Virus record (IMG/VR): IMGVR_UViG_3300038701_002087
Span: 1 to 36,395 of that record
Length of the DNA stretch: 36,395 bases
From: a virus
Reading direction: 5' to 3' (one strand)
The position numbers and the translations under genes were made by a program. Below are positions 3,084-33,381 of this stretch, piece after piece (within the stretch, counting starts at the first letter, position 1; every line of letters starts with the position of its first letter). The notes below the pieces were generated by a model. That model did not search any database. It was not told the origin of the DNA and saw only the letters and a program-made list of their open reading frames with translations.

Positions 3084-5063
3084 TTAAATTCTATAAAATG
3101 TACAATTTACTGAACCACCAGCTGGTGACCCAGAACCAGAAAAAGAAATTGAAACAGAGGTTGAGAATGTAATGGATGCTGTTCCGCTACCTCCACTGTG
3201 ATAAGTTGAAATTTGTGTCGTTCCCCATTTCATAAGTGTGGCTGACCCCCTAATTGAATAACTTGATTCCTGAGGCGTTGAGAGTTTAACCACAACCATG
3301 TTGGCATCCTCTGGAACTTGGAAAGTAATACTACCAGGAATAGAGTCTGGCCCTCTTGCTTCTGTAGCAGCCAAAAAGCAAGGGCCCTTTCTTACAAGTA
3401 ACTTAGTTGTTGTTATAGCATTGCCCACTTCACAAAGATTAGAACTGGGGCTAGACAAGAGTGTCCCATTGCTATGAAGGAAGTACGCCTTACCAGCAAC
3501 GAATGGCGCACCTGAATCATAGAGAGTATCATTACCTCCTATTACAGGGTGTTCATCATTTAGTACGCCTGTTGCTGAAGCAAATCCTATGAAGCCATTT
3601 GCGAATATTCCATTAGAGCTATCAACCTTGTATAGCTTTCCATCCATTCCTATGTAAACTAAGTTATCTATATAGGGTTTATTTGATCCGTTATTCTTTG
3701 AGTTCCATCTATGCTCAGTTGCATTTGCACATTTTAAAATGAAACCATAATTAATTAATCTGTAACTTTCCCCATATCTTAAATCATCACAATTGAAAGT
3801 TATGTATCCAGTTGCATTGCCAGCTACTACATTTGACATTGCAAGGCTAGAATGATCAGGGGCGGTATCATAAGTAACAGTTGCTGAGGTCCAAGATTCA
3901 TTGATAGGTCTTAGGTCATGATCACCAGCTCCTGAAGAAGTTCCTCTATAAATATTAAAATCAAAAGAAACAATCTGTTTTACATCAGCAGCAGTTACCC
4001 CTATATCACTAAGTAAACTTGTAAATTGAAACATACCATATCTAGGATCACCATTGTCTGTATAGATATAAATTTCACCATTGTAATTGGTTGCACCAGA
4101 AGAGCCATTCACATAGGTATCATTAGTGGGTTCATATTGATTAGCCCCCAAGTCAACCATCTTGAGATAGCCAACAGGATCACCTGCTGTAATAGCCTCT
4201 CCATAAACACCGCCAACACCATAATTCACCACACCCCCATCAATATGCTTTACAGACAATGTTCTTGTTTCTGTACTTTCAAATATCTCACCTGCAGCTG
4301 CAGCAGCTTGTGATTTCTCACTAAGACTGACTCCGCCAACTGCTATTTTTGTTTCAACTCCATTGTCATCTAAAACATAATAACCATCAGCTTTAGGATA
4401 AAGCCTCCACCTTCCAGTTGTGGGAGTGGGGGGAGTTATACCATTCTCAGGCTGATCAATCAATCCATCCACTATTTTTAATGTATCAATATCAATTCCA
4501 TTGTCAGTTGTCTTCTCAACAATATTATCTACCTGTAAAGTATCAATATTATTGATACTGATGGTATTTCTTGAGTCAGTTATATCACCCTCTTCAACTG
4601 TAGCTCCTTGAACAACATCTGCTAGACGATACCAAAAATAAGCATCAGCTGTTTGTGAGTCTATTTCAGAATCATCCATTGGATTGGCATCAACGCCTTC
4701 AACATGGATAATAGTAAAAACACCAGTACCATCTTGAGGATTTGCATTACCATCCTGAACATTAGCCTTTGGTATTGCCGCTATTACTGAACCAACATTG
4801 CCATTTGTACCAGTAATGGTCACTACTTTTTCACTTGTATTTTCACAAAAAACTTTAAATGTTTTTGTATCAACTGTTCTTTCGACCTCTATTAATACAA
4901 CACCAGCAGAGATATCAACTGTATTGTCGGCAGGGTCTTGTGGAGTAATTTCTAAATGATTAGAAACAAGTACTCCTGTACTTAAATTTTCAGAAAACCA
5001 CTGATTTACATCATATTCTTGTACTTCATTTTCGCCGTTGAGTAAACAAATTCTTTCTGCCAT
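3084..5063 (-). CDS. Tail fibre or receptor-binding protein.
   Basis: 659 aa, Gly/Ser/Thr/Asn-rich and beta-rich. It is the last structural gene before the lysis cassette. Confidence 0.5.
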   Translation of the reverse strand: MAERICLLNGENEVQEYDVNQWFSENLSTGVLVSNHLEITPQDPADNTVDISAGVVLIEVERTVDTKTFKVFCENTSEKVVTITGTNGNVGSVIAAIPKANVQDGNANPQDGTGVFTIIHVEGVDANPMDDSEIDSQTADAYFWYRLADVVQGATVEEGDITDSRNTISINNIDTLQVDNIVEKTTDNGIDIDTLKIVDGLIDQPENGITPPTPTTGRWRLYPKADGYYVLDDNGVETKIAVGGVSLSEKSQAAAAAGEIFESTETRTLSVKHIDGGVVNYGVGGVYGEAITAGDPVGYLKMVDLGANQYEPTNDTYVNGSSGATNYNGEIYIYTDNGDPRYGMFQFTSLLSDIGVTAADVKQIVSFDFNIYRGTSSGAGDHDLRPINESWTSATVTYDTAPDHSSLAMSNVVAGNATGYITFNCDDLRYGESYRLINYGFILKCANATEHRWNSKNNGSNKPYIDNLVYIGMDGKLYKVDSSNGIFANGFIGFASATGVLNDEHPVIGGNDTLYDSGAPFVAGKAYFLHSNGTLLSSPSSNLCEVGNAITTTKLLVRKGPCFLAATEARGPDSIPGSITFQVPEDANMVVVKLSTPQESSYSIRGSATLMKWGTTQISTYHSGGSGTASITFSTSVSISFSGSGSPAGGSVNCTFYRI

Positions 5064-5094
5064 AGTATCCTAATTATACATTAAATAAAAAATA

Positions 5095-6198
5095 TTAGCT
5101 AATCTCTAATTCAGCAACTTTATCCTTAAGCTCAACAATATCATCAATAAGATTCTTTTCCTCTACTGCCGTCTTTGCAAATTCTATATTCACTTCTAGG
5201 CTGTTTGCAGTTGTTTTATTATTGATTTTAACAACCTTAAAAACATCATCAACTGATAGCAAGTCTGACCCTGTATTTATAAACACGGGGACAGTATCGC
5301 CAATATCAATATCTTTAAAAGTTAACTTACTTGTATTTGGAGTAATCTTATTGAAGGTAGCACTCTCTTTATGGAGCTCAAGATAATTAGTCACTTGTGT
5401 TGAAAGCCCAGCAACGGCAGTAGTATTGAATGATTCAATTGACTCTATCCTACCTCTTGCATTTATACTGGTCGCATCTGTATCAGATGAGAAATCAGAA
5501 CTACTTTTACCAAGTACAGCATTTGATAAATCAGAAGAATCAACAGTAATTAAAGCTGCTCTAATTGAGTTCTCAGGTGAATTGTCTATGTCATATCTGA
5601 AATCCATGTATTCATCTGTCTCTGGTATAGTTCGATTGATTCCAATACTATCTTTTAATTGTAACTTCCTGTCTTTAACTTGCCACTCTCCATTGACCGC
5701 CACTGATAAATCCTTAAGTATCTTCAAGAAATTCTCACCCCTCTTATACTCTTTGTCTACAGCAGTTGTTAATATATCCTCTGTGTCTAGGGTAATGCCC
5801 ATGTCATCAAGTGCATTTAATTGAGTGAGTATATTAGAAAGAGTGACATCTACATTCTCAGCTGTGGCTGTGTAGTCAGATGCAAAAAGAATCCTTCTTT
5901 CAAACAGATAGCCGAAGTCGCTAAATAGAACTTCGACTCCTTCAAAGTCTGCTTGATACCCTCTAATGACACCTTCAAAAATTTTATATTCAATGTCTTC
6001 TGGTTGTTCATAAATATCTATCCTATTAAATTCTTGAAGGTTTTCCTTAGAGGCACTTGGATGATCGTATCTAATAAAGAAAGAACCATTCCATTTTTTG
6101 TTTATGGTTTTAGAATAATTTAAATCTCTAGGATTAATTATTTGAGTTAATACTGCGCCATCATCATTACCCCTAATTTTGACTATATATTGAAACAT
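5095..6198 (-). CDS. Tail tip / baseplate hub-like structural protein (Tal-position).
   Basis: Called on position only: second gene after the tape measure, with a coiled-coil C-terminus. Confidence 0.35.
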   Translation of the reverse strand: MFQYIVKIRGNDDGAVLTQIINPRDLNYSKTINKKWNGSFFIRYDHPSASKENLQEFNRIDIYEQPEDIEYKIFEGVIRGYQADFEGVEVLFSDFGYLFERRILFASDYTATAENVDVTLSNILTQLNALDDMGITLDTEDILTTAVDKEYKRGENFLKILKDLSVAVNGEWQVKDRKLQLKDSIGINRTIPETDEYMDFRYDIDNSPENSIRAALITVDSSDLSNAVLGKSSSDFSSDTDATSINARGRIESIESFNTTAVAGLSTQVTNYLELHKESATFNKITPNTSKLTFKDIDIGDTVPVFINTGSDLLSVDDVFKVVKINNKTTANSLEVNIEFAKTAVEEKNLIDDIVELKDKVAELEIS

Positions 6199-6204
6199 TG
6201 CTTT

Positions 6205-7095
6205 TTATATAAATGTATCTGGCCATTCGAAGAGGACATCCACACATAAGCCGTCACCAAGCCTTTGCAAATCATCCCTAACAATAAATGTATTATTTCC
6301 TGGATAAGCATACTGGAAGATAGAGCCATTAATCCTATCACCACTAACACTAACATCATTAAGAGTGATTGAACTATTTCCTGTGTCTATCACCAAAACA
6401 TCCCCCTCCTGCATTTCAGTCTGTATACCAATATAATTATCATTAACAGTATTGATCAATCTCATATTCGGGCCACTAAGATGGTTAGCTGTGATTGTAG
6501 TTTTTAATGGTGAAGGCCAATTACCAGCATTGATAGTGTTGGCAACATATCCATAAGTATCAAAAGCAACAGGGAAGGTAGTTGGAAAAGATATACCACC
6601 ATAGAAACCTTCGACATGTACTAACTCATTCTGAGTTAAAGTTTGATAATATGAATTCTCAGATATCAGCTGTGCTTGCCAATCAGTTATCATCACATTG
6701 CCAAGTTCTTGTTGTAGATAACTAGGCATATTCAATATTTTTGCAGGGATGACATAGTCGACACCATCATCACCAAGGAATTCGAAATCATAAACCCCTT
6801 TATTGTTAGGTCCAGGGAAAGCTTCAACAGCAAATGTTGAAGCTATGATCTGTCTATAGACTTCTCTTTCCTGTCTACTGTTTGCTATGATCCTACCTTG
6901 AATATTTATTATTCTACCTCTAGCAAAAGTTGGGCTCACCTCTATCCCATGGGTACCTTGTCTATTGTTTTGATCATCAGAAGTTACAACATCGGCCCAC
7001 TGACAAGCAGTGATAACAATCCCTTGTCCATTTGGCCTATCAAATTCATCATCTGAAAAACTCTGCCCACGATATTTAAAGTTTTTTCCAATCAT
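6205..7095 (-). CDS. Distal tail protein (Dit-position).
   Basis: Starts immediately after the tape-measure stop, which is the canonical siphovirus order. Confidence 0.45.
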   Translation of the reverse strand: MIGKNFKYRGQSFSDDEFDRPNGQGIVITACQWADVVTSDDQNNRQGTHGIEVSPTFARGRIINIQGRIIANSRQEREVYRQIIASTFAVEAFPGPNNKGVYDFEFLGDDGVDYVIPAKILNMPSYLQQELGNVMITDWQAQLISENSYYQTLTQNELVHVEGFYGGISFPTTFPVAFDTYGYVANTINAGNWPSPLKTTITANHLSGPNMRLINTVNDNYIGIQTEMQEGDVLVIDTGNSSITLNDVSVSGDRINGSIFQYAYPGNNTFIVRDDLQRLGDGLCVDVLFEWPDTFI

Positions 7096-25202: not shown

Positions 25203-25481
25203 CTATCTTTTCTTTTTCAATATATTATACCTCCTCAATTCATCTAATATCTCTTCATTCTTGCTCCTAGGTACATTTTTTTTATGACTATGCTCATGAT
25301 ACACCACAATTGAAATAGTGCCTATCTTCATGGCTATAGCAGCAACCAGCCATATATAGTTTTGCAAAATCAATCCAACAACCAAAAAACAAAATCCAAC
25401 AAAGCTACCAATGGTCTTTCGATTTTCAATATCTTTAAATTTCATGACTATATCATAACACAATATCAATCCCATATCCAT
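25203..25481 (-). CDS. Small membrane protein. An alternative start MKFK lies at 25445.
   Basis: Two TM segments (IGSFVGFCFLVVGLIL, IWLVAAIAMKIGTISIVV). The first 12 codons overlap the TCCCATA iterons. Confidence 0.45.
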   Translation of the reverse strand: MDMGLILCYDIVMKFKDIENRKTIGSFVGFCFLVVGLILQNYIWLVAAIAMKIGTISIVVYHEHSHKKNVPRSKNEEILDELRRYNILKKKR

Positions 25482-25507
25482 CCCATAATTCTCCCATAGC
25501 TATGGGA
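25470..25507. repeat. Three direct TCCCATA copies phased at 11 bp, plus one inverted copy that forms the palindrome tcccatagctatggga.
   Basis: Copies at 25470, 25481 and 25492. Inverted copy at 25501-25507. A T6 run follows. Confidence 0.8.
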
Positions 25508-25531
25508 TGGATTTTTTATCTTTATTCAAAA

Positions 25532-25561
25532 CGGACAGTTTCGGACAATTTAGGACAAAAA
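25532..25561. repeat. Three tandem 10-bp iterons (c/a)GGACA(nnnn).
   Basis: cggacagttt / cggacaattt / aggacaaaaa at 25532, 25542 and 25552. Confidence 0.8.
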
Positions 25562-25616
25562 TAAAACTAACTTCCAGTCCCATCTGCAATAATCAGTTTC
25601 TATGTTATAATATACT

Positions 25617-25833
25617 TTCAGTGCAAAGATGCAAAGTATTTTGCCCCTATATATAAATAATTCATTTTTACCTATAAAATAGAGTATATAAACAATAGAA
25701 GATTAAAACTTTACATCTTTGCACTGAACCTCTATAGCTAGCCACGTATTCTGGTGCAAAGTTGTTTTAACTTTACTTTAACTTTAAACTGATTAAAACA
25801 TCAAAAATAACTTATGGCAAACAAACTTTGCAC
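25617..25833. repeat. Five TGCAAAG / CTTTGCA motifs, including two inverted pairs.
   Basis: ttcagtgcaaagatg (25617-25631) is the reverse complement of catctttgcactgaa (25714-25728). gtgcaaagtt (25754-25763) is the reverse complement of aactttgcac (25824-25833). An extra tgcaaag lies at 25630-25636. Confidence 0.8.
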
Positions 25834-25921
25834 TAACTACACCAATACCAGAACATAAATACACCACCCTCGTCAATGACTTTTGCTTTACTTTCAAGTA
25901 CAATTATTTATACTGGGTTTT

Positions 25922-26002: not shown

Positions 26003-26404
26003 ATGTCTCAGTATCAATACATCATAATATTCTTTGTCATTTCATTCTATGCTTTATTTATATGGATAGTAGGTAGACACTTGGATAAAAAGATTAATCA
26101 GATTGAAGATGCTTTGAATAGATTGGAAGGGGAAATGAGGAAGGATGTTGAACCACTACTTAAAAGGATTAAGAAAGACTTTAAATATGAGCTAGAGGAA
26201 CATTGCCCACTTTCAAATCCAATATCATACTCAAAATCAAAACATATTATAGAATTTGAAGAAATGAAATATGCATTAGGATTTTCTGAGCCAGAAACAG
26301 GATGTGTATCTACGATTGAAAGATGGTACGCATTATTAGATCATCTTGGAATTGAATGGGATGAGAGCAGAGTTGAGGGTAAATTTATAAATAAGAAGAA
26401 ATAA
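26003..26404 (+). CDS. Membrane-anchored hypothetical protein.
   Basis: I prefer the ATG at 26003 (MSQYQYIIIFFVISFYALFIWIV...) over the TTG at 25883, which would run through the operator repeats. Confidence 0.5.
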   Translation: MSQYQYIIIFFVISFYALFIWIVGRHLDKKINQIEDALNRLEGEMRKDVEPLLKRIKKDFKYELEEHCPLSNPISYSKSKHIIEFEEMKYALGFSEPETGCVSTIERWYALLDHLGIEWDESRVEGKFINKKK

Positions 26405-26419
26405 TTAACTATAATTAAA

Positions 26420-26629
26420 ATGAAAAAAACTGAAATCATCATCAAGCAAGATGGTAAAGAAATATCAAAAAAAATTCTTACCTCGCCAGATAAAAAAATA
26501 GAACAATTAGATTTGAGCTGCTCATTTATAAATGATGGTGAGGAATTAGTTGAGATAAGCAATAAAATGTATATCAACTATGGCACTATAACAATACAAA
26601 ATGATAACACTAAAAGCATTAAAGAATGA
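26420..26629 (+). CDS. Hypothetical protein.
   Basis: 69-aa ORF. Its stop overlaps the next start as ATGA. Confidence 0.45.
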   Translation: MKKTEIIIKQDGKEISKKILTSPDKKIEQLDLSCSFINDGEELVEISNKMYINYGTITIQNDNTKSIKE

Positions 26630-26742
26630 AAAAACTATACCTAAAAAAAATATGTTCCTGTAAAAGTTGTAAAAATTGTATAGATTGTATGAAATGCAAT
26701 GTTTGCAAACAATGTAAAAATTGTGTTATAGTAACTGTTTAA
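26626..26742 (+). CDS. 38-aa Cys-rich peptide with nine Cys on a CxxC period.
   Basis: Hand translation gives MKKLYLKKICSCKSCKNCIDCMKCNVCKQCKNCVIVTV*. ATGA overlap with the upstream ORF. It is below the ORF-track size cutoff. Confidence 0.45.
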   Translation: MKKLYLKKICSCKSCKNCIDCMKCNVCKQCKNCVIVTV

Positions 26743-26755
26743 TATTATAAAACTA

Positions 26756-26941
26756 ATGAAAAAAGTACGTCTAAACATCTTCACCCCAAAGAAAGAGGGT
26801 GCCACAGAAGCCTTCGCAAACGCTTCTAAGCAAATAGAAAAACTTATGGCCGAGGGTTATGAGGTCGAGGTAAAACTCTTGGCAGACGGGACAAGGCGTG
26901 AGGTATATAAATTTGATAACTTAAAAGACTCACCAAGATGA
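26756..26941 (+). CDS. Hypothetical protein.
   Basis: 61-aa ORF. Confidence 0.45.
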   Translation: MKKVRLNIFTPKKEGATEAFANASKQIEKLMAEGYEVEVKLLADGTRREVYKFDNLKDSPR

Positions 26942-26985
26942 AAGACTAGCACCTCCCTACCAGGCTTCCATTGTGGAGCCTTGCA

Positions 26986-27078
26986 TGAGGGGTGGCGGAA
27001 AAGGTAAATATACGAGTAAGGCGTCCGTAAAGACGATTTATATAAAACTAACTCTCGTCAAATCCCTGCCACCCCTCA
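26986..27078 (+). ncRNA. Structured element, domain A: an extended hairpin of about 93 nt. Strand is not resolved.
   Basis: 26986-26998 pairs with 27066-27078 (13 bp, one G-U). Nested stems at 27012-27016/27054-27058 and 27022-27025/27032-27035. Confidence 0.35.
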
Positions 27079-27100
27079 CTCTCCCCCCTGTTCATTGCTG

Positions 27101-27331
27101 GTATTTGAAATGTAGGTTGTAAGGATTCTGTCTGGCTTGGTCGCCCCAAGTAATCATACTAGTTCGGTAAACAGATAGAAGGCGGAATAAGCGAGGCTGA
27201 AAATCTCGTGCTGAGGCTAGCTTAGAAGTAGCTTAAACAACTGCTCACGAAGATGCACATGATCTTAGTCGTTCTCGGCAGGCTCGGTGAAAATCCGACT
27301 ATTGCTCGCTTACAACCTACATCTTGAATAT
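27101..27331 (+). ncRNA. Structured element, domain B: about 230 nt closed by a long helix. Strand is not resolved.
   Basis: 27110-27123 is the perfect reverse complement of 27309-27322 (14 bp). After one mismatch, eight more pairs form (27101-27108/27324-27331). Several internal hairpins. No ORF in any frame. Confidence 0.4.
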
Positions 27332-27437
27332 CAATAGTGAGTATAGGCCTTAATACTTAATTTAATTTTATGAAAAATAATTGCATTGCCCTCCTCCTTG
27401 CATTTGCATTTGTTTGCTTACTAACTTTTTTATAAAA

Positions 27438-27911
27438 ATGAACAACCTAACCCACCCCACCTACATCAAAGCGCGTGATCTCATCTTAAAGTCCGAAGGG
27501 AGGGCGCTTGAGGATGAGCAATCGAGTGCGATCAGAAGACAGACATCATATTGCTTAAAATGTGATGAGGATTTAAGTGATTTAATTGGATGGGATTCAA
27601 TTGGGGAAAAAATTGAATGTAGAAATTGCGGGCATTTTATGGAGGTAGATTATGATGAAAGCTATATAAATGGTAATGAAGAAAATCACTGGTTTCTAGT
27701 CAATCTAAAAGGATTTGACCCCATCTCCCTAGACAGGGTTTTGATGGCTTTAGAGAAGTGGTATTGGAAAAATCCTATGGCCAATGAGCCTGGATGGGAT
27801 TGGTATATTTTGATAATCACAAAAGAATGGAAACTAGGCCAACCCCTCCACCTCCAATCCGAAGAGGTATGGGAGAAGATTGTGGAGATTTTAGAAGATA
27901 ACCAAAAATGA
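27438..27911 (+). CDS. Zinc-ribbon protein of unknown function.
   Basis: CLKC ... CRNC pairs. I prefer the ATG at 27438 over the TTG at 27381. Confidence 0.5.
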   Translation: MNNLTHPTYIKARDLILKSEGRALEDEQSSAIRRQTSYCLKCDEDLSDLIGWDSIGEKIECRNCGHFMEVDYDESYINGNEENHWFLVNLKGFDPISLDRVLMALEKWYWKNPMANEPGWDWYILIITKEWKLGQPLHLQSEEVWEKIVEILEDNQK

Positions 27912-27915
27912 TTAT

Positions 27916-28287
27916 ATGTCCATACATTGTGATGCATCCTTCAATAAGGATGGAGCATCAATTGGGGTTTACATACCAAATGTTTGTTCTAAATTTAAAA
28001 AGATAGAAGCCAAGGATTCTGGCCATGCAGAAAGAATGGCTATCCTGTATGCAATGAGAATTGCAGCTAAGAATGGGTTGGTAGATTCTGTTGTATATAG
28101 CGACTCTAAATCTACAGTTGATAAAGTTCGTAAGGATGGAAACGGAGGTTCAAAAACAATAAAAAGAATAAAATATATGATGAGAAGGTGGGGTTATAAA
28201 TTGAGATGGAAAAGAAGAAGTACTCATAAAATAAAAATTGCTGATAAGATAAGCAGAGGATTAAACTTGCCAAATCATAAATTATAA
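27916..28287 (+). CDS. RNase H-like protein (RNase HI / RVT_3-type fold).
   Basis: The pattern CDASF...ASIGVYI, SGHAERMAILYA, VVYSDSKSTV and IKIADKISRG fits the D-E-D-D layout of RNase H domains. Confidence 0.65.
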   Translation: MSIHCDASFNKDGASIGVYIPNVCSKFKKIEAKDSGHAERMAILYAMRIAAKNGLVDSVVYSDSKSTVDKVRKDGNGGSKTIKRIKYMMRRWGYKLRWKRRSTHKIKIADKISRGLNLPNHKL

Positions 28288-28296
28288 AACTAAACC

Positions 28297-28644
28297 ATGA
28301 CCAATAAACCCCTTACACCACAGGAGATAATAGATCGGTTGGCTAACTTTGAAGTCATCATGGAGCACCCTAACGGCACAAAGAGTTTAAAAGATAACCC
28401 AGTCTACATAGGGGATGTGCTGGCAAAATTTTTTGACAACAAACCTTCAAATCTTGAAAAAGAAAAAGAGTTATTATTTTATTGGGGGGAATGTGGATCA
28501 GACAAATCCCTACAGGAGATAGAAAAGGAGAGTGGGTCTGATTGTTGTTTTTTACATTTTGATACTACTTGTGATGGAAAAACTAAAAAACTCAAATCCC
28601 CCCAAGCTCGTGATCTGTTTAATTTCTTATCTGAGATATTATGA
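28297..28644 (+). CDS. Hypothetical protein.
   Basis: 115-aa ORF. Its stop overlaps the next start. Confidence 0.5.
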   Translation: MTNKPLTPQEIIDRLANFEVIMEHPNGTKSLKDNPVYIGDVLAKFFDNKPSNLEKEKELLFYWGECGSDKSLQEIEKESGSDCCFLHFDTTCDGKTKKLKSPQARDLFNFLSEIL

Positions 28645-29021
28645 ACAAACTAACCAACCTAGAAATCATCAAGAAGGCTGCGAAGATGGGCTATTCAGCA
28701 GTGTTGAAATGGCCAGATGGCATAGGTCACGTTGTAGCTATTTCCAAGGACAGTCCTCCATTTGTTTATGATAAAAAGGATAAGGAGGCATCCAATGAAT
28801 TTGGAATTGATTCCGCAAAGATTAAAGGCTTCCTATACGTCTCACAACTCTTCGGTGAACCAAAGATAACAGAAGGGCAGAGGTTTCGGGTGAGGGAGAC
28901 GGGGGAGATTATGGCAATGGATTATCAGCCAGACAGTGAAGTGCTTTTGCTGGACTATGACAAGGTGAATAACACCTACAAAAACTATTATAAATCAGAA
29001 CTTGAGCCAGTATTTGAATAG
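28641..29021 (+). CDS. Hypothetical protein, paralogue of 33982..34380.
   Basis: Shared blocks K.AA.MGYS..LK.P, GQRF....TGEI and a C-terminal EPVFE. Confidence 0.55.
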   Translation: MNKLTNLEIIKKAAKMGYSAVLKWPDGIGHVVAISKDSPPFVYDKKDKEASNEFGIDSAKIKGFLYVSQLFGEPKITEGQRFRVRETGEIMAMDYQPDSEVLLLDYDKVNNTYKNYYKSELEPVFE

Positions 29022-30161: not shown

Positions 30162-31493
30162 ATGAAAAAAGCAGATAAATTCTACAGCGTAGCAAAGAAG
30201 TTTACTGATGAGCACAACTTAATTTATTTTAAAGGAACCCCCTACCTTTTTAATGAAGGTATTTGGAGGGAGGAGGATAAAGAGAACACTATGGCATGGA
30301 TTGGAAAGGAGTACACAAAGGCTTACACAGAGCCCGCACTAAAAAAAGATAAATCTGAGATGCTATCAATGATTCAAGATGATACCTACAATCAATACAG
30401 GAAGCAAATCAAATATCTTTCGCAAAAAAGAGACAAGAAAACTGTCAATACTAAGGAGGGTGTTCTGAGCTTGAAAGATTATAATGTCAAGTCATATGAA
30501 AAAGAGGACTTTGCTTTTCATAAATTGCCATTCAATTATATTGAAAAACCAAAGTGTCCTACCATGCAAAAGTTTTTGACAACCTCAATGGGGTGGGATT
30601 GGAATGAAAAAAAGAATGAAGCAATTCTAACAAAGGACACAATTGAAGACTATATTAAAATCATGCAATTCATTCAAGAGTGGATGGGCTATAGTCTTGT
30701 ACCTGGAAACCCTATGGAGAAATGTTTAATCATGCATGGCTCAGGTCGTAACGGGAAGGGAAAACTTCAAGAGATTTGGAAGTATATTGTCGGCGCACAT
30801 AACGTCTCGTCAGTTGACATCAAAGGAATTAATGATGGTACTGTTATTTTTCAAACAAAGAATAGATTAATTAACTTCTCATACGACTTAGAAGATGGCC
30901 AGCAATTAGACACAGGAGTAATAAAGTCTGCCATCTCTGGTGAAACCATGACAGTCAATGAGAAGTACAAGCCTCAATATGAAATGGACTTTACAGCAAA
31001 GCTAATCATTGCCTGTAATAATTTACCCTTCATCAAAGATACTGGCTTTGCAATCAGAGAAAGGATTCACTTCCTCCCATTTACAAAAGAGTTCTCTGAA
31101 GAGGAGCGGGATATTTACCTTGGGGAAAAATTAAAGGCAGAGGCAGAGGATATCTTTTCTTGGGCTATAAATGGCCTTAGACGCCTTCAAGGACGTGGAC
31201 ACTTTGATGTACCAGAGCGTTGCAAAAAAGCCAACAGGAGCTACATGAAGGACAACGATTCAATTTCTAATTGGATTGATGAGGATCATATAGTAGAAAC
31301 AACTTCTAAATGTAAGCGAAGTGAGGTGTGGAAAGCCTATAGGTATTACTGCAGGGAATCAAACTTCAAGCCTGTTGGAAAAATAAAATTCTATAAAGTT
31401 ATGGAGAAACGATTCAATTTGATACTATCGAATGGGGAGTATTACTTTGATGGCCTAAAGATACCGAATCAAACTATTGAGATGGGAAGTTAA
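30162..31493 (+). CDS. SF3 helicase of the D5 / phage-plasmid P4 primase C-terminal type.
   Basis: EWMGYSLVPGNPMEKCLIMHGSGRNGKGK (Walker A) is characteristic of the family. At 443 aa there is no room for an N-terminal primase-polymerase domain. Confidence 0.75.
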   Translation: MKKADKFYSVAKKFTDEHNLIYFKGTPYLFNEGIWREEDKENTMAWIGKEYTKAYTEPALKKDKSEMLSMIQDDTYNQYRKQIKYLSQKRDKKTVNTKEGVLSLKDYNVKSYEKEDFAFHKLPFNYIEKPKCPTMQKFLTTSMGWDWNEKKNEAILTKDTIEDYIKIMQFIQEWMGYSLVPGNPMEKCLIMHGSGRNGKGKLQEIWKYIVGAHNVSSVDIKGINDGTVIFQTKNRLINFSYDLEDGQQLDTGVIKSAISGETMTVNEKYKPQYEMDFTAKLIIACNNLPFIKDTGFAIRERIHFLPFTKEFSEEERDIYLGEKLKAEAEDIFSWAINGLRRLQGRGHFDVPERCKKANRSYMKDNDSISNWIDEDHIVETTSKCKRSEVWKAYRYYCRESNFKPVGKIKFYKVMEKRFNLILSNGEYYFDGLKIPNQTIEMGS

Positions 31494-31528
31494 TTCGTAA
31501 CTTTAGGTAACTACACGTAACTTAAAAT

Positions 31529-32125
31529 ATGTTAATGAAACCAAACAAAAATTTCGACAGGCAAATACTAAAATTCTACTCAGAGGGGATGAGTGTCTAC
31601 GATATTGTCCGCATCTTCAATCCTGTTTATCGGGAGAAGGATATCCACAATCTTATTGATGAGCATGAATGGGCCACCAGAGAAATCAAAAAGCACATGT
31701 ATGAAACAAAGCAATCGGTTCATTTGATGGAAGCATTCGAAGTATTTGAAGAGCACATCTATGACATGTGCATGGTAAACATCGGTGATGTTAAAGCATC
31801 TAAAAAGCGACGTGAGCACTTCTCACAAATGTTAAAAAAGTTTAGGTCATGGAAGAATAAAGATGAGCAACTCATGGTTGAGAAGGCGAAAGAATATCCA
31901 ATCATTGAATTGGTCTCACAGTTCACAGACGATCCAAATGGGGTAACCTTCTACAGGAACATTAAATGTATCCTCCATGATGACAGCACAGCAAGCATGA
32001 AACTATATGAGAATAACACATACTACTGCTTTGGTTGTAACCAGGGCGGTGACACTATCGATCTTCTAATGAAGAAGCGTGGTGTCGATTTTATTTCGGC
32101 CGTTAAATGGCTAACTAATTCTTAA
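31529..32125 (+). CDS. CHC2 (DnaG-type) zinc-finger protein without a TOPRIM domain.
   Basis: The C-terminal IKCILHDDSTASMKLYENNTYYCFGCNQGGDTIDLLM matches C-x2-H-x17-C-x2-C plus GGD.I.F. The N-terminal half has an HTH-like segment. Confidence 0.65.
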   Translation: MLMKPNKNFDRQILKFYSEGMSVYDIVRIFNPVYREKDIHNLIDEHEWATREIKKHMYETKQSVHLMEAFEVFEEHIYDMCMVNIGDVKASKKRREHFSQMLKKFRSWKNKDEQLMVEKAKEYPIIELVSQFTDDPNGVTFYRNIKCILHDDSTASMKLYENNTYYCFGCNQGGDTIDLLMKKRGVDFISAVKWLTNS

Positions 32126-32136
32126 TAAAAATAATA

Positions 32137-33381
32137 ATGTCACTAAACGAAAAACAACAACAAGCATTTGATACAATCAAGGCAGGCCACAACGTATTCC
32201 TGACTGGTCCTGCTGGCACTGGTAAGTCATACCTGATCCACTACCTCAAAAAATACCTCGATGTAGATGTGACTGCATCCACTGGCATTGCTGCGAATCA
32301 CCTTGGTGGTCAAACAGTCTTTAGTTGGGGTGCGTTCTTTCCAATCCCAGCACTAGAGGCATATGGACAAAAAGAAATACCATACATAAGGGAGAGAATA
32401 AAGAAATGCAGTAGACTTATTATTGATGAAATCTCAATGATTGATGCTGAGTTCTTTGATTATATCGATGTTTCTTTGAAGGCTATGCGGCATGACACAC
32501 GGCCATTTGGCGGCTTACAAATTATTGCTGTAGGTGACTTCATGCAGTTGCCACCTGCCAGTAAGAACCCCAAGTATTGTTTTGAATCTAAGGCTTGGGA
32601 TGAAGCTTTATTCGAGCCAGTTAAATTAACTGAAATCAAAAGACAGGAGGATGCAAACATGGCAGCTCTTCTTAATAGGATGCAAATCAACCAAATGAAA
32701 AATGAAGACATCGAACTTTTGAAAGCTAGAAATATTGACACTCCATTTGATGATGATGTAGTACAACTTTTCCCATTAAATAAGTATGCTGATAGTGTAA
32801 ATCACAAAAAACTTTTTGCCCTTCAGGCAGAAGTAAAAAATTACTACGCCCAAAAAGAAGCTGATCCTTTTGCACATCCTAAACAGGCCGAGGTTGGCAT
32901 TAGCAAGTTTATAAAAGACAGCCTTATTGAAGACAGGTTAATTTTAAAAGAGGGTGCTAGAGTAATGATGCTTTCAAACGAATACCTAGAAAGTCAAAGG
33001 GTATCAAATGGAAGCACGGGTGAAGTACTGGCAATGAATGATCATGTAGTCCTTGTTGGGTTTGATAATGGAGTTACTTTAGAAATAGAAAGAAAGACAT
33101 ATGAAGTTAAGATGAAGAACATTAAAACTAGAAAGGAGGTAAAGCTAGGGACGGTAACTCAATTCCCACTCAAGCTTTGTTGGGCCATCACGATTCACAA
33201 GAGTCAAGGCATGAGCCTCGATAGGTTGGCCATAGACTTTAAAGGCATATTCGCCCCCTTCCAAGCTTACGTTGCATTGTCGAGAGCACGTAGTCTTGAT
33301 GGTGTTCAGATTAAAAACTTTGATCCTAAGTATATTAAGATTGATCAAAAGGCAGTAGACTTTATGAATAGTATTAAATAA
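32137..33381 (+). CDS. PIF1 / RecD / Dda-like SF1B helicase.
   Basis: GPAGTGKS (Walker A), LIIDEISMID (Walker B), GDFMQLPP, TIHKSQGMSLD and YVALSRARS. Confidence 0.8.
   Translation: MSLNEKQQQAFDTIKAGHNVFLTGPAGTGKSYLIHYLKKYLDVDVTASTGIAANHLGGQTVFSWGAFFPIPALEAYGQKEIPYIRERIKKCSRLIIDEISMIDAEFFDYIDVSLKAMRHDTRPFGGLQIIAVGDFMQLPPASKNPKYCFESKAWDEALFEPVKLTEIKRQEDANMAALLNRMQINQMKNEDIELLKARNIDTPFDDDVVQLFPLNKYADSVNHKKLFALQAEVKNYYAQKEADPFAHPKQAEVGISKFIKDSLIEDRLILKEGARVMMLSNEYLESQRVSNGSTGEVLAMNDHVVLVGFDNGVTLEIERKTYEVKMKNIKTRKEVKLGTVTQFPLKLCWAITIHKSQGMSLDRLAIDFKGIFAPFQAYVALSRARSLDGVQIKNFDPKYIKIDQKAVDFMNSIK

Follow-up and report, generated by a model that had tools for sequence, protein, structure and literature searches.

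What does a gene-free stretch of a phage's early operon do? We analysed positions 1 to 36,395 of IMG/VR virus record IMGVR_UViG_3300038701_002087 (36,395 nt, hereafter the window), in which an earlier note, made from the letters alone, had marked 26942-27437 as a candidate novel non-coding RNA or structured origin. The element, which we delimit to 26941-27336, is a genuine non-coding, structured module specific to the + strand, consisting of two long helices with exchangeable interiors, both helices being conserved in a second phage (L028, ENA accession ERZ26692762). What the earlier note had observed was largely right and what it made of the observation partly right; overlooked was the tRNA-derived nature of the first of the two hairpins.

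The absence of a long open reading frame (ORF) was confirmed over 26942-27380, where the longest frames are 49 aa on the + strand (26973-27122, with a GTG start) and 33 aa on the − strand. A decayed protein-coding gene, which the earlier note had raised, was rejected: the ORFs of relatives gave no real tblastn match, the related-phage proteins that matched the element were solely translations of the homologous element itself, and the indels relative to L028 are out of frame, with length differences (67 versus 39 nt and 185 versus about 42 nt) that break the reading frame. The region is rich in G+C, at 45.8% over 26942-27345 against 37.1% for the whole window, which places it in the top 2.2% of 400-nt windows. 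A contrast first counted by hand was reproduced at 47.2% for 27121-27300 and 21.7% for 26401-26460.

The features of the element are as follows.

26941-26985, + strand: conserved 5' leader block, beginning exactly at the end of the upstream ORF; aligns with 2235-2280 of L028 with 4 differences.
26962-26968/26975-26981, + strand: stem of a small hairpin (H0) in the leader, predicted in the window phage and in L028.
26986-27078, + strand: hairpin A (domain A), with a 13-bp closing helix (26986-26998/27066-27078) that includes one G-U pair.
27012-27016/27054-27058 and 27022-27025/27032-27035, + strand: inner stems of hairpin A.
27079-27098, + strand: pyrimidine-rich, mostly unpaired linker (CUCUCCCCCCUGUUCAUUGC), the same in L028 except for a 1-nt deletion and TG>CA.
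27099-27123, + strand: 5' arm of helix B, 25 nt, 100% identical in L028.
27124-27308, + strand: interior ("cargo") of hairpin B (domain B), not conserved and not unusually structured.
27309-27333, + strand: 3' arm of helix B, 25 nt, with one L028 difference (A27315>G) that turns a U-A pair into U-G.
27087-27097 with about 27335-27345, + strand: outer pairing specific to the window, outside the conserved element.
Within 27334-27437, + strand: A+T-rich spacer up to the zinc-ribbon ATG at 27438; no L028 alignment past 27336.

Both proposed closing helices were recovered, the first with its single G-U pair and nested stems, together with the pyrimidine tract between them (27079-27090). In helix B (27099-27123/27309-27333), 24 of 25 positions pair (21 Watson-Crick, 3 G-U); the perfectly complementary 14 bp of 27110-27123/27309-27322 continue, as had been noted, past one A-C mismatch (27109/27323). 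Folded as RNA, the + strand of 26942-27380 reached −131.2 kcal/mol (z −3.36), and none of 100 shuffles was equally stable; the − strand gave z −1.70. The leader plus domain A scored z −3.73, and the 185-nt interior of domain B (27124-27308) +0.14 on the + strand and +0.77 on the − strand. The excess fold stability lies in the two long closing helices, not in a multi-stem core. The description of the region as highly structured holds for these helices and fails for the domain B interior, and the picture of a closing helix around a multi-stem core was not borne out, the core being neither conserved nor more structured than chance. Since the interior scores at +0.14 and +0.77, the small hairpins and the 7-8-nt direct repeats reported inside it (TGAAAATC at 27198 and 27288, TAGCTTA at 27218 and 27229) are present but at chance level; by an arithmetic estimate, about 0.2 to 1 such 7- and 8-mer repeats are expected per 185 nt. 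The weak hairpin and U-rich tail described at 27338-27370 exist as sequence, but no terminator was called there and neither is conserved in L028.

The element has one true homologue, in phage L028. This phage belongs to the same lineage (helicase 78% identical) and was reached through homologues of the zinc-ribbon protein. Its element, at 2235-2460, lies between genes that are non-homologous to the window's on both sides. Three blocks (26941-26995, 27068-27123 and 27300-27336) are 93-94% identical between the two phages; the DNA of the D5 helicase gene is 74% identical. Within the blocks, differences fall at 2 of 82 paired and 11 of 66 unpaired positions (Fisher p 0.003). The outer 9-10 bp of hairpin A are identical, and its interior (67 nt in the window, 39 nt in L028) differs in sequence, the L028 version being a further G-U-rich stem extension, so that both L028 hairpins reach about 25 bp. 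The interior of hairpin B shrinks from 185 nt to about 42 nt. The L028 fold is strand-specific as well, with z −4.11 on the + and −1.35 on the − strand. The candidate non-coding RNA of the earlier note thus stands as a non-coding structured element that acts on one strand and forms a conserved island in a second phage. In L028, hairpin B lies between two copies of a 6-nt direct repeat, ATCACT (2353-2358, 2461-2466), which may be chance or a trace of the hairpin's origin; at that site the window has an inverted match (UCAUU/AGUGA) and no flanking direct repeat.

The reading we favour, and hold at slightly short of an even chance, is that this + strand RNA belongs to the early operon and that its pair of irregular hairpins, with their G·U pairs, serve as stalks for processing or stability, stalk B releasing what it encloses. 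T7, with RNase III sites between its early genes, and the stems that flank rRNAs provide the models. By analogy with them, the duplexes would act within the polycistronic early transcript, where a double-strand-specific RNase such as RNase III could cut them; alternatively, they would shield neighbouring mRNA segments from exonucleases. Cleavage of stalk B, which carries an exchangeable interior, would free that interior as a discrete small RNA. This reading is consistent with the 3 G-U pairs of helix B and with the G-U-rich stems that extend hairpin A in L028. Helix B is also long enough for an RNase III-type stalk, for which a duplex of about 20 bp or more is the criterion, and it lies on the strand of the flanking genes.

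Several points weigh against this reading. RNase III usually needs roughly 20 bp and the continuous helix of hairpin A is 13 bp; the hairpin reaches about 20 bp only with internal loops counted. Scans for promoters and terminators gave no promoter, terminator or processing signal. Helices A and B are backed by a single homologue of the framework, and the comparison of paired with unpaired positions was made post hoc on 13 differences. The early region is also highly mosaic, and other window-L028 islands of 88-100% identity occur at gene junctions. Between 27438-29020 of the window and 2894-5680 of L028, islands mark the starts and junctions of genes whose bodies are unrelated, and those at 27886-27915 and 28291-28333 are 100% identical, which suggests frequent recombination at conserved junction sequences. 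Because of these islands, recent recombination may have contributed to the conservation of the blocks.

We consider it very improbable that the element works as DNA, either as an origin or cruciform for the D5-type primase-helicase or as a recombination or mobile-element scar. The position of the element, 2.7 kb upstream of the replication genes, would suit an origin, and its 32-nt inverted repeat is the second longest in the window; for a scar there is the ATCACT repeat around hairpin B in L028, to which the window copy has no counterpart. However, 4 of the 25 helix B positions are mismatched as DNA, and the − strand folds much worse. The origin reading is weakened because the helices depend on G-U pairs, which are present only in the + strand RNA. 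The structured origin proposed in the earlier note also fails on composition, as the region is G+C-rich with no A+T-rich unwinding stretch, and neither iterons nor repeat families were found in 26941-27336. Origin-like repeats lie elsewhere, at 25463-25835 and 31496-31523. Nor is this a multi-copy mobile element, because the arm motif has no other true copy in the viral contigs, the Joint Genome Institute (JGI) metagenomes or the 185,579 species genomes. A miniature inverted-repeat mobile element was rejected, with no further copies and a 6-nt flanking repeat in L028 only.

Known RNA families gave no better account. At gathering thresholds, Rfam 15 returned no match over the whole window; a cmscan of 26700-27600 at E <= 10 gave three chance-level matches, none of them to 6S, YrlA, tRNA or tmRNA, in agreement with the earlier note, which had recognised no known family. 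ARAGORN found 0 tRNA or tmRNA genes in the window. A retron-like msr-msd or 6S-like RNA, as the note had suggested, is scarcely credible. The resemblance is one of general shape, with inverted repeats closing a folded region and an RNase H gene nearby, and such a repeat is nonspecific for retron a1/a2 without a reverse transcriptase or a conserved msd-like stem. No reverse transcriptase domain was detected among the window proteins scanned (30 by Pfam and PHROGs; capsid, portal and terminase through precomputed Pfam notes), as the note had also said, and the RVT_3 match reflects an RNase H fold. Both analogies lack support because no reverse transcriptase was found and no Rfam model, 6S included, matched at E <= 10; the interior, moreover, is not conserved.

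Hairpin A is derived from a tRNA-like RNA. The related IMG/VR phage L001, whose helicase is 82% identical to the window's, has a single sequence in common with the region, the exact 18-mer GGGGTGGCGGAAAAGGTA, which is the 5' arm of domain A. Scanning viral contigs for this 18-mer core gave 24 loci, several of which are class II tRNAs. Many of the others carry the tRNA-Leu acceptor and D arm at the 5' end and a T arm with complementary acceptor strand at the 3' end, with 43-146 nt of unrelated sequence or variable hairpins in place of the anticodon arm. Further viral scans and a scan of species genomes added many more copies of this tRNA-Leu-like family, all candidate copies having been gathered by motif scans of viral contigs and species-representative genomes. 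The 5' part of the consensus reads 7-nt acceptor 5' strand, U G, GCGGAAUAGGUAGACGC, variable arm(s), CAU and GCAGGG, with GCGGAAWAGGUA as D-arm 5' strand and loop and GACGC as D-stem 3' strand. The T arm has either the loop UGCAAAU or, in a long subfamily, UGACUAUAC-GAG, a variable hairpin and CUC-GUCAAAU. CCCUGC and the 7-nt acceptor 3' strand complete the molecule.

The fold of this family was examined in an alignment (A2) of 39 distinct sequences put in register by anchor motifs. Changes on both sides of a pair occurred at 6 of 7 acceptor and 4 of 6 T-stem pairs (10/13), and 98.6% of cells were paired, compared with 70.7% in shuffles and at most 54% with a slid partner column; none of 500 shuffles reached the observed score. 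To enter A2, a candidate had to show 6 or more of the 7 acceptor pairs and pairing along its entire T stem, so the percentage paired is partly built in; the covariation is not.

Neither ARAGORN nor any Rfam model recognised the family loci, even at E <= 10, and no conserved protein partner was found among the neighbours examined. Most members are the sole tRNA-like gene of their locus, and L021, L047 and L048 sit in tRNA arrays. A fixed position as a gene's 5' leader was rejected, as only about half of the family copies stand directly upstream of an ORF, at 40 nt or less. Matches in species genomes came from Actinomycetota, Acidobacteriota, Bacteroidota, Saccharibacteria, Planctomycetota and Campylobacterota, and the family 20-mer ATGYAGGGTGACTATACGAG is found in GTDB contigs (L103-L109) of Antrihabitans, Arthrobacter, a Blastocatellia metagenome-assembled genome, Chitinophaga, Saccharibacteria, Brocadia and Sulfuricurvum. 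A core so conserved across such different hosts suggests a universal host partner. Among relatives of the window phage, L001 has an intact member in the same early region and L045 one downstream of the helicase gene.

Members also occur in two model phages. In Bacillus phage SPP1 (L111, X97918.2), an intact short-form copy lies at 6647-6755 on the + strand (locus 495-603) between genes 9 and 11, with acceptor AACACGG/CCGUGUU and T arm GCUAGG-UGCAAAU-CCUAGC; it is unannotated, and the doubtful "gene 10" covers it in antisense. Neither "tRNA" nor "ncRNA" occurs anywhere in the 2018 re-annotation of SPP1 (PMC6316719). A T-arm-like minihelix with a U run follows this copy at about locus 616-668. 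Listeria phage B025 (L110, NC_009812.1) has a 189-nt member at 41907-42095, + strand, with acceptor AUACUCG/CGAGUAU; it is likewise unannotated, lies upstream of an HNH endonuclease gene, and its last 49 nt form the annotated start of the hypothetical gp64. The central arm of the B025 copy resembles that of L085, and on the − strand of L081 two long-form copies stand in tandem, about 390 nt apart (3' motif at 5014-5030 and 5406-5422). Full-text searching of the literature found no description of the family, although one may have been overlooked; widespread in phages and prophages and absent from Rfam 15, it is apparently undescribed. The same 5' 21-mer also occurs in class II tRNAs with a long variable arm and a tRNA-Leu-like body (L006 10713-10801 on the − strand, L009 1139-1227, L017 191-277 and L027 1149-1237), to which ARAGORN assigns the anticodon GUU, "tRNA-Asn"; such a body with a GUU anticodon might point to a recoding or non-decoding role.

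Read against this family, hairpin A comprises the following parts.

26986-26992 and 26993-26994, + strand: tRNA-Leu-like 5' module, acceptor 5' strand UGAGGGG followed by U8 G9.
26995-27006, + strand: 5' module continued, D-stem 5' strand and D loop (GCGGAAAAGGUA).
27009-27017 and 27054-27063, + strand: 3' module of the family, UAUACGAGU, a variable hairpin and CUCGUCAAAU.
27064-27069, + strand: T-stem 3' strand CCCUGC, whose partner GCAGGG is missing upstream.
27070-27071, + strand: 2-nt insertion CA, which pairs with U8 G9 and makes the helix continuous.
27072-27078, + strand: acceptor 3' strand CCCCUCA, complementary to 26986-26992 at 7/7 positions.

The best matches of the family 5' and 3' profiles in the whole window both fall in domain A, on the + strand and in the correct order, the 5' profile reaching E 0.0084 at the 5' module. 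A full-length profile matches 27009-27075 at its positions 113-191 (E 7.6e-9), and 26990-27006 corresponds to positions 5-21. For positions 22-112 the window copy has nothing, GGUA running directly into AAUAUACGAG. The window copy retains the acceptor stem, U8 G9, the 5' half of the D arm, the T-stem 3' strand and the inserted T-loop helix of the long subfamily (UAUACGAGU, CUCGUCAAAU), of which the leading UGAC is missing, and it lacks the D-stem 3' strand (GACGC), the central variable arm(s) and the T-stem 5' strand. As positions 22-112 are absent, it cannot fold like a tRNA. In none of the 39 family sequences does the CA insertion occur, and there the acceptor strand abuts CCCUGC directly; L028 has it as well (ACACCCCUCA). 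Judged by sequence, hairpin A is an internally deleted descendant of a tRNA-Leu-like gene, a derivative and not an intact family member. The deletion took out the centre of such an RNA, beginning with the D-stem 3' strand, including the variable arm and ending with the T-stem 5' strand; the CA insertion has fused the remnants into one continuous 13-bp helix, and the product has been taken over as a plain hairpin.

These losses also invite a less generous reading, in which the element is a non-functional relic, one or two dead tRNA-like copies in decay whose arms are alike through recent exchange between the window phage and L028. Domain A does lack half of the family core, neither hairpin has a conserved interior, that of hairpin B is no more structured than chance, other short islands of high identity occur at gene junctions nearby, and the framework was found nowhere beyond the window and L028 in the sequences searched. 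Decay would not be expected to spare paired positions (2/82 against 11/66 differences), nor to leave in both phages a CA insertion that perfects helix A. The interior of hairpin A in L028, too, was rebuilt as a longer G-U-rich stem and not as random sequence, and folding is strong and strand-specific in both phages. We regard a relic as rather unlikely.

The interior of hairpin B holds a second hint of the family. A D-arm-like stretch in it, GGCGGAAUAAG (27181-27191), has exactly the sequence of the family's D arm, and the T-arm-like hairpin UCGG-UGAAAAU-CCGA (27284-27298) follows 94 nt past it, the spacing seen in the family. Of the 29 occurrences of this motif pair in 1.88 Mb of retrieved sequence, 28 are in family members and one is here. 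The interior is possibly a second decayed copy, which we treat as a lead, not a finding. It might itself be the functional part, a trans-acting small RNA (perhaps with the interior of A) that the stalks only release and stabilise. The exact D-arm match, the UGAAAAU-loop hairpin at family spacing and the near confinement of the motif pair to family members would fit such an RNA. Against it, the 5' profile gives E 6.3 on the motif, the 3' and full-length profiles report no match in the interior, and an in-register acceptor stem pairs at 4/7 positions only. The interior is also replaced in L028, folds at chance level and found no homologue among retrieved loci totalling about 570 kb, and we rate its action in trans as improbable.

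Searches for further copies of the framework gave little. A blastn search of GenBank phages returned no match to the element, and the zinc-ribbon protein had no relative in the viral contigs. L028 was the one true homologue among the contigs that relatives of the zinc-ribbon protein and of the D5 helicase led to. Exact scans for the arm motif in viral contigs, JGI metagenomes and 185,579 GTDB species genomes produced chance matches or none, and the more distant relatives of the window phage have no copy. Two of these distant relatives (L044 7076-7219, L045 2596-2739) encode a 47-aa protein with an Acb2/Tad1 hairpin domain, of the anti-CBASS/anti-Thoeris sponge family, next to a divergent promoter region.

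The window as a whole is most of one siphovirus-type phage genome, with the following genes around the element.

1889 to 25034, − strand: structural genes (tape measure, distal tail protein (Dit), SU10-type capsid, SPP1-type portal, terminase).
From about 25883, + strand: early and replication genes.
27916-28287, + strand: RNase H-fold protein (the RVT_3 match).
30162-31493, + strand: D5-type primase-helicase.
31529-32125, + strand: DnaG zinc-finger protein.
32137-33381, + strand: PIF1/Dda helicase.

Within the early operon, the element is flanked by a 61-aa ORF, with its end at 26941, and by the zinc-ribbon ORF (ATG 27438), all genes flanking it being coded on the + strand; the downstream replication genes are 2.7 kb away. 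Shine-Dalgarno sequences are missing from the genes, a hint that the host may belong to the Bacteroidota. Upstream, where the late and early operons diverge, the intergenic region (25463-25835) holds a 31-nt inverted repeat of 84% complementarity (25610-25640/25705-25735), a second one (25754-25768/25819-25833) and short tandem repeats at 25463-25487, 25532-25558 and 25766-25787, which are likely operators, promoters or an origin. In the gap between the D5 primase-helicase and DnaG zinc-finger genes, the 10-nt unit CGTAACTTCA is repeated 2.8 times (31496-31523), a more conventional origin candidate than the structured element. A 38-aa ORF at 26626-26742 consists almost wholly of C-x2-C motifs (MKKLYLKKICSCKSCKNCIDCMKCNVCKQCKNCVIVTV); a 9-nt unit, TGTAAAAAT, is repeated in tandem about 3.4-4 times at the same place.

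If the stalk reading is joined to the ancestry of hairpin A, the element may be the worn-down end of a class of phage RNAs with a tRNA-Leu chassis, reduced here to bare stalks that would go on marking the early transcript for processing and freeing an exchangeable small RNA; we put this forward as a possibility that we doubt more than we believe. The chassis would be the acceptor stem, the D arm and a modified T arm, often with a helix inside the T loop, displaying variable cargo arms in place of the anticodon and variable arms, and the class would extend over phages and prophages of at least six bacterial phyla, including SPP1 and B025. Since no protein partner is constant across the class, it presumably acts through machinery that all hosts share, such as RNase P or Z, the CCA-adding enzyme, leucyl-tRNA synthetase (LeuRS) or the ribosome. 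Taken alone, the window element is modest, two conserved hairpins with an inferred function in a rare phage lineage. Its main value is as a pointer to an apparently undescribed and very widespread tRNA-Leu-derived family, whose 20-nt core motifs are near-unchanged in phages of six scanned phyla plus Bacillota. Should that family truly be undescribed, SPP1 and B025 are model phages in which to test it directly, and it bears on why phages carry tRNA-like genes that are unable to decode and on whether they use tRNA scaffolds to express and stabilise small RNAs.

Phage RNAs derived from tRNAs, and intercistronic hairpins, are already known as kinds. The element was compared with several such systems. 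In it, as in the retron msr-msd, inverted repeats close a folded non-coding region, but the window has no reverse transcriptase, its interior is not conserved and there is no Rfam match. YrlA (RF02553) is a tRNA-mimic RNA also carried by phages, including the related phage L039. There, at 4769-6781, the gene of a 478-aa Ro60-like protein (DUF2828 plus VWA) precedes a 576-nt gene-free stretch that holds about five repeats, with T-arm-like cores and ends resembling AGNCNCNCACAGCAA...GNCUAGGUACA; the Rfam YrlA model detects one of these repeats at E 2e-7, short of its gathering score. A YrlA identity was rejected for the window, which lacks both a Ro60-like gene and, at E <= 10, any match to that model. 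In YrlA, moreover, permuted tRNA modules sit in a Ro-binding stem, whereas the ends of the tRNA-Leu-like family form an acceptor stem.

Also comparable are species 1 and 2 of T4 (rnaC and rnaD), small stable phage RNAs without anticodon function that are encoded beside tRNA genes, as are some family members (L021, L047 and L048, in tRNA arrays); rnaC also ends in a T arm and an acceptor-like stem. We know of no function for these T4 RNAs. No similarity to the family core was seen in the T4 sequence, and most family members, unlike the T4 RNAs, stand as the only tRNA-like gene of their locus.

A further comparison is with class II tRNA-Leu, whose acceptor and D arm match the 5' 21 nt of domain A and of the family. 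E. coli tRNA-Leu carries GGUGGCGGAAUUGGUAGACGC, and the motif matches annotated tRNA-Leu in cyanophages, in Klebsiella, Erwinia and Serratia phages and in mycobacteriophages. The family keeps the 7-bp acceptor stem, U8, G18 G19 and a 6-bp T stem. It differs in having variable hairpins of 43-146 nt and no anticodon arm, a T loop (UGCAAAU) with G in place of the near-universal U55, or an inserted helix, and as a rule no encoded CCA, and it goes unrecognised by ARAGORN and, even at E <= 10, by the Rfam tRNA model; the window copy additionally lacks the D-stem 3' strand and the T-stem 5' strand.

In architecture, the element resembles RNase III stalks such as the T7 intercistronic sites and the 16S/23S rRNA stems. 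The continuous helix of hairpin A is short by comparison. As in those systems, long imperfect duplexes lie on the transcribed strand between cistrons, and the stem is conserved while the sequence that it encloses is free to vary.

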